Positions 19,333-19,364 are shown, counted from the first letter of the stretch. The stretch is 64,000 bases of DNA from Nitrospirota bacterium (GCA_016212185.1 JACRGX010000002.1:3760-67759), one strand, 5' to 3'. Numbers and translations: made by a program. The notes: generated by a model from the letters alone, not told the origin.

Positions 19333-19364
19333 CTGTCTGTCTGTCTGTCTGTCTGTCTGTCTGT
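19333..19364. repeat. (CTGT)8 tetranucleotide tract (CAGA on the coding strand) inside the 5' region of the lipoprotein gene
   Basis: Read directly: ctgt x8. Confidence 0.9.

Follow-up and report, generated by a model that had tools for sequence, protein, structure and literature searches.

Does a perfect run of a tetranucleotide in a Nitrospirota genome decide whether a lipoprotein gene is read, and can changes in its length turn that gene on and off? Slipped-strand phase variation is textbook biology of host-adapted pathogens and commensals. Whether the restriction of such loci to pathogens and commensals is real or a database bias was left as an open question in a 2025 review (PMC11868660). 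The tract studied here lies in a stretch of 64,000 nucleotides (the window) from the metagenome-assembled genome (MAG) GCA_016212185.1, and a sequence-only reading of the window had proposed it as a phase-variable contingency locus that sets the frame of a lipoprotein signal peptide. We refer to the gene that follows the tract as lipA and to the next gene as lipB. The features of the locus are collected in Table 1.

Table 1. Features of the lipA-lipB locus, in order of transcription on the minus strand (window coordinates).
Feature	Position	Strand	Remarks
Promoter-like site, TTGACT-17 nt-TATAGT	19431..19459	minus	best sigma-70-type match in 17600..19700, 10/12 positions
Shine-Dalgarno (SD) sequence, AAGGAG	19406..19411	minus	read directly from the sequence; 10-nt spacer to ATG
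Proposed true start, ATG	19393..19395	minus	SD and promoter-like site in front
Second in-frame ATG	19384..19386	minus	seven more codons, then the tract
TGA closing the lipoprotein frame just 5' of the tract	19371..19373	minus
Repeat tract, (ACAG)8 = plus-strand (CTGT)8	19333..19364	minus	proposed slipped-strand hypermutable element
Lipoprotein signal peptide, (I)NLKDKKLNLIALSIILFNISAC	19263..19331	minus	lipobox ISAC, Cys codon 19263..19265
TAA ending the ATG frame in the 8-unit (OFF) state	19315..19317	minus
Mature LipA	18549..19262	minus	predicted beta-sandwich and helical hairpin; uncharacterised lipoprotein family
lipB, second lipoprotein gene	17882..18559	minus	ATG overlaps the end of lipA by 11 nt

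The repeat tract and the frames on either side of it

Direct reading of the sequence and Tandem Repeats Finder (19332..19364, period 4, 8.2 copies, 100% matches) both confirmed the minus-strand repeat that the sequence-only reading had picked out. The unit ACAG is a cyclic permutation of GACA. In the frame of the upstream ATGs the tract is read as (RQTD)n, and it holds no stop codon in any of the three frames. It is the sole tetranucleotide repeat with at least four copies in the 64 kb, the runners-up having three. The longest period-4 self-match run was 29, whereas 100 first-order Markov simulations never exceeded 11; the expectation by chance is about 1e-12. Phasome surveys (PhasomeIt) call tetranucleotide tracts phase-variable at five or more units (PMC5953494); the tract described here is perfect and has eight units, or six in a second allele. 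The window contains no paralogue and no second similar tract, and thus gives no sign of a multi-locus phasome. The flanks available for read matching are ...CATTGATTTTGC and AATAAACTTAAAAG....

The genome appears rich in tandem repeats of 7-10 nt, with one tetranucleotide tract only. A 75-nt block, (AGGATTCA)4-GTGAAAAA-(CTCGACCC)4, is present at 41379..41453 (plus strand) and, as its reverse complement, at 55111..55185, inside two paralogous NuoG/FdhA-like ORFs (40502..43075, plus; 54908..56059, minus). It occupies the same relative position in both (about residues 292-317), is in frame and translates to ...KKEGSRIQGFKDSSEKLDPSTPRPLDPFPSFREASW..., and looks like an insertion of about 25 residues close to where the molybdopterin domain begins, with perfect tandem octamers as its building blocks. 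Intergenic composite elements composed of inverted tandem arrays of octamers lie at 38422..38521, 40372..40511, 56050..56177 and 24838..24873, for example (AGGATTCA)3 ... (GTTATAA)5 ... (TTGAATCC/TTGACCCC)4. These elements could form long hairpins and flank two NuoF/FdhA-like clusters, paralogous and in inverted orientation, at about 38.4-43 kb and 58-53 kb. Short intergenic tandem arrays of heptamers (and of 9-10-nt units) are numerous (9863..9893, 37062..37094, 42657..42701, 44108..44144, 48313..48346, 53261..53292, 62460..62490, 34483..34569 and 52581..52682); their units include ACGCATT, TCAACCC, TCTTAAC, AGCTGAT/GGCTGAT and AACAGTG. The heptamer arrays resemble the heptamer direct repeats found upstream of genes in Beggiatoaceae and cyanobacteria (PMC4679880).

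Upstream of the tract, the two in-frame ATGs of the sequence-only reading were recovered, the first of them 28 nt from the repeat and preceded by a strong SD sequence. The promoter-like site in front is a near-consensus candidate, as judged by its match to the consensus. Between that site and the tract there is no other ATG or GTG in any frame, and the two TTGs that occur there (19374..19372 and 19368..19366) share the frame of the ATGs. With eight units the ATG frame reads MGTMLAALILHRQTDRQTDRQNKLKR, a total of 26 codons, and then ends at the TAA (19317..19315) six codons past the tract, as had been stated. The lipoprotein frame opens directly after the TGA (19373..19371), stays open to the stop at 18549 and translates to KDKKLNLIALSIILFNISAC, with the Cys codon at 19265..19263 and the lipobox in the context ...INLKDKKLNLIALSIILFNISAC followed by S.... 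The first ATG, GTG or TTG in that frame is the GTG at 19130, up to which the reported lack of a start codon was borne out. Likewise, no SD-like site or canonical start was found 3' of the tract and before this GTG.

The locus was rebuilt with 3 to 13 units. Tracts of 4, 7, 10 and 13 units gave a single ORF of 276-288 aa; those of 3, 5, 6, 8, 9, 11 and 12 units gave stubs of 15-30 aa. Only n = 1 mod 3 therefore links the ATG to the long ORF, in agreement with the earlier claim that eight units represent OFF and that loss of one unit (to 7) or gain of two (to 10) fuses the frames. The tract is thus a repeat whose unit length is not a multiple of three, set between a credible start and an otherwise intact ORF.

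Other roles for the region were considered and rejected. Programmed +1 frameshifting or transcriptional slippage might rescue the 8-unit allele, but there is no slippery heptamer and no prfB-like CUU-stop context, nor is there an A/T run of nine or more between the tract and the TAA. A plus-strand function was also set aside: the only candidate, a 67-aa ORF (19374..19577) antisense to the proposed promoter and leader, was judged spurious.

The annotated protein, its family and its neighbourhood

The 193-aa ORF at 18549..19130 is identical to the deposited protein MBI5194725.1 (hypothetical protein HZA10_00215), save that the GTG is read as Met. The deposited record carries the label 'Nitrospirae bacterium' (MAG) and belongs to a contig of 75,117 nt. 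When 1.84 billion representatives were searched exhaustively with HMMER, 585 relatives came up at E <= 1e-3, 133 of them at E <= 1e-10. These relatives are mostly about 200-250 aa long and their alignments begin within the signal peptide. In an alignment of 25 homologues the lipobox Cys is present in every one, and conservation is strongest in the block GL.VA.DPF.EE.RL..FG.DLL..GILPVLVV.EN, which is located at or upstream of the GTG of the annotation. By family homology, about 67 conserved residues upstream of this GTG belong to the gene. Together, the alignment of homologues from the signal peptide on, the invariant Cys and the motifs at or upstream of the GTG place the start of the gene upstream of 19265. 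Since the homology takes in the signal peptide, the 193-aa protein of the annotation is, on comparative grounds, an N-terminal truncation forced by the frameshift, and the GTG start (19128..19130) is a frameshift artefact. The deposited entry is what remains, after truncation, of a lipoprotein about 260-280 aa long, and its annotation is corrected here to a member of a widespread, unnamed lipoprotein family.

The N-terminus has the features of a predicted lipoprotein: a positively charged KDKK segment, then the hydrophobic stretch LNLIALSIILFN, then the lipobox ISAC, which fits the pattern [LVI][ASTVI][GAS]C. Hydropathy in a 9-residue window peaks at 3.19 over LIALSIILF. The earlier claim that this signal peptide is joined to the 18549..19130 protein is thus upheld by the family. 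The Cys stands at a median position of 26 in the homologues and at 43 in the ON product; about 10% of homologues have it at position 40 or later (by a crude regular expression), so the long N-region of the ON precursor is not disqualifying. At the place where a family member of typical length would start, 23 residues before the Cys, the window has an ATA codon (19329..19331), which suggests that the long N-terminus of the ON product is derived and lineage-specific.

Domain searches returned nothing for the family. Neither LipA nor LipB matched Pfam-A at E <= 0.1, LipA had no match in NCBIfam, the listed family members carry no precomputed Pfam domain, and those that are named are called hypothetical in every source. 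Besides the signal helix, an AlphaFold2 model of LipA (pLDDT 78, pTM 0.72) has a beta-sandwich and a long hairpin of helices that carries a hydrophobic segment; Foldseek found no match to the model in the PDB at E <= 0.001. A word-index homology search with the reconstructed ON protein and LipB returned self matches only. Against 5.8 billion clusters the reconstructed 280-aa ON protein matched only the truncated 193-aa entry, and an exact-protein look-up gave no record for the annotated 193-aa LipA, the 225-aa LipB or the neighbouring H+-PPase-sized ORF.

Members of the family come from Smithella, from Bryobacterales/Acidobacteriota and from many metagenomes. LipA shares with them the lipobox Cys, the motifs DPF.EE.RL..FG, GILPVLVV.EN and H.GF.YF, and the length class. 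With the closer members it also shares an adjacent lipB-like gene: lipB homologues adjoin lipA homologues at five loci of closer relatives (L081, L084-L086 and L088) and in Smithella (L001), which makes the pair a conserved two-lipoprotein module. From these sequences, the LipA family is widespread, unnamed and paired with a second lipoprotein. In the window, lipB is probably co-transcribed with lipA and possibly translationally coupled to it, given the overlap of the two genes. LipA of the window differs from the family in its low identity to any member (at most 39%) and in a C-terminal extension of about 30 residues. The other family members examined start at a plain ATG, which precedes the Cys by 15-35 codons, and lack a repeat tract.

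Toxin-antitoxin modules bracket lipA-lipB. A PIN and DUF6364 pair (16956..17622, minus) lies downstream and an MNT (Polbeta nucleotidyltransferase) and HepT pair (19510..20309, minus) lies upstream; a further PIN-looking pair is found at 20480..21101. The GC content of the 18-20 kb segment is 34%, against 43% for the window, and this drop around the modules suggests a variable or acquired segment. Elsewhere, a c-di-GMP-I riboswitch aptamer at 47640..47719 (minus) is the only Rfam match in the window (RF01051, 52.4 bits against a gathering score of 35, E 2.3e-7). An 802-aa ORF (11784..14192, plus) combines PqqD-like, radical SAM and SPASM segments with a C-terminal class I methyltransferase, a domain order that hints at a maturase of the peptide-modifying (RiPP) type.

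The window encodes a PBP1-type penicillin-binding protein, HdrA/MvhD-like proteins, the two paralogous NuoF/FdhA-like clusters and a formate-THF ligase, a gene content that points to an anaerobe with C1 metabolism. The earlier description of the host as an environmental sulfate reducer was not established, as no sulfate-reduction gene was seen among the window ORFs tested. The view that this Nitrospirae MAG is not a host-adapted pathogen stands.

Tract length in a second assembly

An exact record of the HepT protein next door was found in one Logan contig, from run SRR12113407 and only that run. The accession of this run had no match in the literature. A 238-aa start-variant of LipB, found through its cluster, led to a second contig from the same run. 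The contigs of interest are SRR12113407_3698916 and SRR12113407_394183, and the two sequences are called L082 and L083 below. L082 (1175 nt) is 100% identical to window positions 20518..19344 and ends within the tract, at ...TTGATTTTGC(ACAG)5A. L083 (2131 nt) matches 19356..17229 with 99.9% identity (2 SNPs in 2128 nt) and starts with TGC(ACAG)6AATAAACTT. This is a 6-unit allele, compared with eight units in the MAG. Both contigs break at the tract. A uniform count of eight, which the sequence-only reading had named as evidence against a switch, is therefore not what the assemblies hold: the second has six units, and the k = 31 graph breaks there.

Logan is a k = 31 assembly that drops k-mers seen once and reports no contigs of 150 bp or less (PMC12424806). 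The first 31-mer of L083 comprises 3 nt of left flank, the six units and 4 nt of right flank; because singletons are dropped, the 6-unit 31-mer was read at least twice in SRR12113407. In de Bruijn simulations at k = 31, a pure 8-unit or pure 6-unit population gave one unitig through the tract, and mixed lengths broke at the tract. The left unitig stopped at (ACAG)5A only when a 5-unit allele was in the mix, so a 5-unit allele is possibly present besides the 6-unit one, if the simulation is a fair guide. The ends of L082 and L083 overlap by 24 nt and also fit a single 6-unit allele with a coverage gap, in which case the difference of 8 versus 6 lies between read sets and not within one. Heterogeneity of the tract within the sample is likely. 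As the HepT protein was found in that one run only, the simplest inference is that the MAG came from the same reads as SRR12113407 and that both alleles coexist.

The flanks of the two alleles diverge by about 0.06% (2 of about 3,300 bases), whereas the tract differs by two whole units within 32 nt. Measured against this background, the length of the tract would have changed about 50 times more than expected. The locus thus combines near-identical flanks with tracts of 8 and 6 units, two alleles that were seen in assemblies only. PCR stutter is an unlikely origin of the 6-unit k-mer. Of the two SNPs between the MAG and L083, 18895 T>C breaks up a run of eight T in lipA and replaces Phe by Ser, a non-conservative substitution in the hydrophobic central segment, and 18461 C>T is synonymous in lipB. 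The two SNPs indicate that the data contain more than one strain.

All alleles seen (8 and 6 units, possibly 5) are OFF, and no ON allele (4, 7 or 10 units) was found in assemblies or in the protein collection. With only two or three alleles, the probability that none is ON is (2/3)^3 = 0.3, and the missing ON allele is weak evidence. A DNA pattern made of the exact flanks with a gap of 16-46 nt had no match in the genome contigs of GTDB or the metagenome contigs of JGI, and a protein-based search for relatives in JGI metagenomes gave 600 pattern matches, 0 of them confirmed.

The comparison with orthologues that had been proposed could be made with distant homologues only, as the best match to LipA is 39% identical; these homologues have a plain ATG and no repeat. 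Among 80 GTDB loci, which contain 6 SSRs in 752 kb overall, not one has a repeat near the 5' end of the homologue, and no SSR lies within -150..+150 of the eight closest-homologue loci (35-39% identity). Phase variation as a trait of the family was therefore rejected, and the tract, with no repeat at any related locus, is without evolutionary depth.

Readings of the locus and known systems

On balance we consider it fairly probable that the locus is a slipped-strand contingency switch acting on the lipA-lipB lipoprotein pair. The geometry of the original proposal held, the upstream ATG proved to have an SD sequence and a promoter-like site, the N-terminus belongs to the gene by homology, and tract length differs (8 versus 6 units); an ON allele was not found. 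In such a switch, transcription would start from the sigma-70-type promoter and ribosomes would begin at ATG 19395, translate ten codons and then read (ACAG)n as (RQTD)n. At n = 4, 7, 10 or 13 the frame would enter the signal peptide and the LipA body, giving a prolipoprotein of 276-288 aa with a longer N-region than usual, which we expect to be exported. At other values of n, translation would end one or six codons past the tract and LipA would be absent because its frame has no start codon of its own. Output of the overlapping lipB would probably fall too, through lost coupling or polarity. Slipped-strand mispairing during replication would add or remove 4-nt units reversibly, producing a population of mixed states in which the sequenced 8-unit consensus is OFF.

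At n = 0 mod 3 the TAA of the leader ORF overlaps the ATA at 19331 as ATAA. The switch may thus have three states: full fusion at n = 1 mod 3, weak re-initiation at n = 0 mod 3 and fully OFF at n = 2 mod 3. A selective benefit might come, for example, from evading phage or predators to which a surface lipoprotein serves as a recognition target. More tentatively, and with less confidence than the switch itself, we suggest that a free-living uncultured Nitrospirota anaerobe uses this contingency locus to keep ON and OFF subpopulations of surface or periplasmic LipA-LipB, perhaps as a hedge against phage or predators.

That both alleles are OFF fits an adaptive reversible switch or a dead gene with a drifting microsatellite. 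According to the latter reading, which we regard as unlikely but the most serious of the alternatives, a chance expansion of the tract at the 5' end of lipA knocked the gene out, and the tract length now drifts unselected; lipA, and perhaps lipB, would be heading for loss in a variable, low-GC region dense in toxin-antitoxin modules. The OFF state of every allele seen (8 units in the MAG, 6 in L083) and the lack of an ON protein in the protein collection agree with this, although mostly-OFF populations are documented for the genuinely phase-variable autB. The absence of the tract from all homologous loci and the position of the locus between toxin-antitoxin modules, in the 34% GC segment of a 43% GC window, are also what decay would predict, as is the finding that one of the two SNPs is the non-conservative F-to-S change in lipA. 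Against decay, the 274-codon lipoprotein frame is unbroken in this AT-rich DNA and LipA retains all family-invariant residues, the promoter, SD sequence and ATG are intact, and a perfect 8-unit tract implies recent, ongoing slippage, so that the inactivation could be reversed at any time.

A second alternative, which we hold to be very improbable, places the tract in a translated leader, with LipA starting at ATA 19331, directly or by re-initiation, and the repeat number tuning its level. ATA is a very poor bacterial start codon, and there is no SD-like sequence inside the tract. A start at ATA would leave 23 residues to the lipobox Cys, near the Met-to-Cys distance of the family, and a textbook 23-aa signal peptide, but the alignment of the ATA with the Met of the homologues partly reflects the point at which the query was cut. 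The ATAA overlap of the 6-unit allele resembles an ATGA coupling site, and repeats in a 5' UTR have a precedent in uspA2 (as cited in PMC4679880); at eight units, on the other hand, the upstream ORF stops 14 nt past the ATA with no start codon near.

The least probable explanation is that the true tract is in frame (e.g. 7 units) in an ordinary lipoprotein gene and was miscounted as 8 and 6. In its favour, the sequence comes from a metagenome bin assembled from short reads, and tandem repeats are error-prone in assembly and PCR. Against it, the 33-nt tract is far below read length and holds no repeated 31-mer, making its assembly unambiguous in simulation, two independent assemblers gave two different out-of-frame counts, neither of them 7, each Logan 31-mer was seen at least twice, and a stutter of minus two units in an 8-unit tetranucleotide tract is expected to be rare.

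The preferred reading, a slipped-strand switch, would provide a Nitrospirae case outside the host-adapted group with the full anatomy of a switch and a directly observed length difference. If it is true, tetranucleotide slipped-strand switching, so far described almost entirely in host-adapted bacteria, extends to environmental metagenomes. The slipped-strand mechanism itself is classical; the interest lies in the setting and the presence of two tract lengths in public assemblies. As Logan k = 31 contigs stop at the tract and their ends keep alternative alleles, contingency loci might be screened for in metagenomes without read mapping.

Among known systems, Moraxella catarrhalis uspA2 has AGAT repeats in the 5' UTR that tune the level of expression (as cited in PMC4679880). 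Like the locus described here, it has, downstream of the promoter and ahead of the body of a gene for a surface protein, a tetranucleotide tract of strain-dependent copy number. In uspA2 the tract is untranslated and tunes level, whereas here it lies 3' of a strong SD sequence and ATG and shifts the frame, so the resemblance bears only on the possibility of a translated leader with an ATA start.

Haemophilus influenzae lgtC, with 5'-GACA repeats (PMC3938747), is closer. The repeat unit is identical, the tract has a 5' coding position and ON/OFF expression depends on frame, through slipped-strand mispairing. The differences are that lgtC codes for a cytoplasmic glycosyltransferase, that it usually has more repeat units (one cited strain has 43) and that its ON/OFF ratios have been measured in patients. 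Switching rate is described as scaling with tract length (De Bolle et al. 2000), and with 6-8 units the tract described here would be expected to switch more slowly than lgtC.

The nearest layout is that of Neisseria meningitidis autA/autB, in which AAGC repeats lie in the DNA for the signal sequence (PMC5118866). These genes encode autotransporters and not a small lipoprotein, the repeat unit is another one, and switching was shown experimentally in Neisseria and is proposed from sequence here; the Neisseria hosts live obligately on humans, as commensals or pathogens, and have dozens of such loci. Pfam found no autotransporter beta-barrel or passenger domains in LipA, so the likeness is one of switch layout only. 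In that layout the two agree: the tract sits a short way past the start codon, within the DNA that codes for the signal sequence, and gain or loss of units sets the frame. Most sequenced autB alleles are OFF, and autB was once taken for a pseudogene (PMC5118866).
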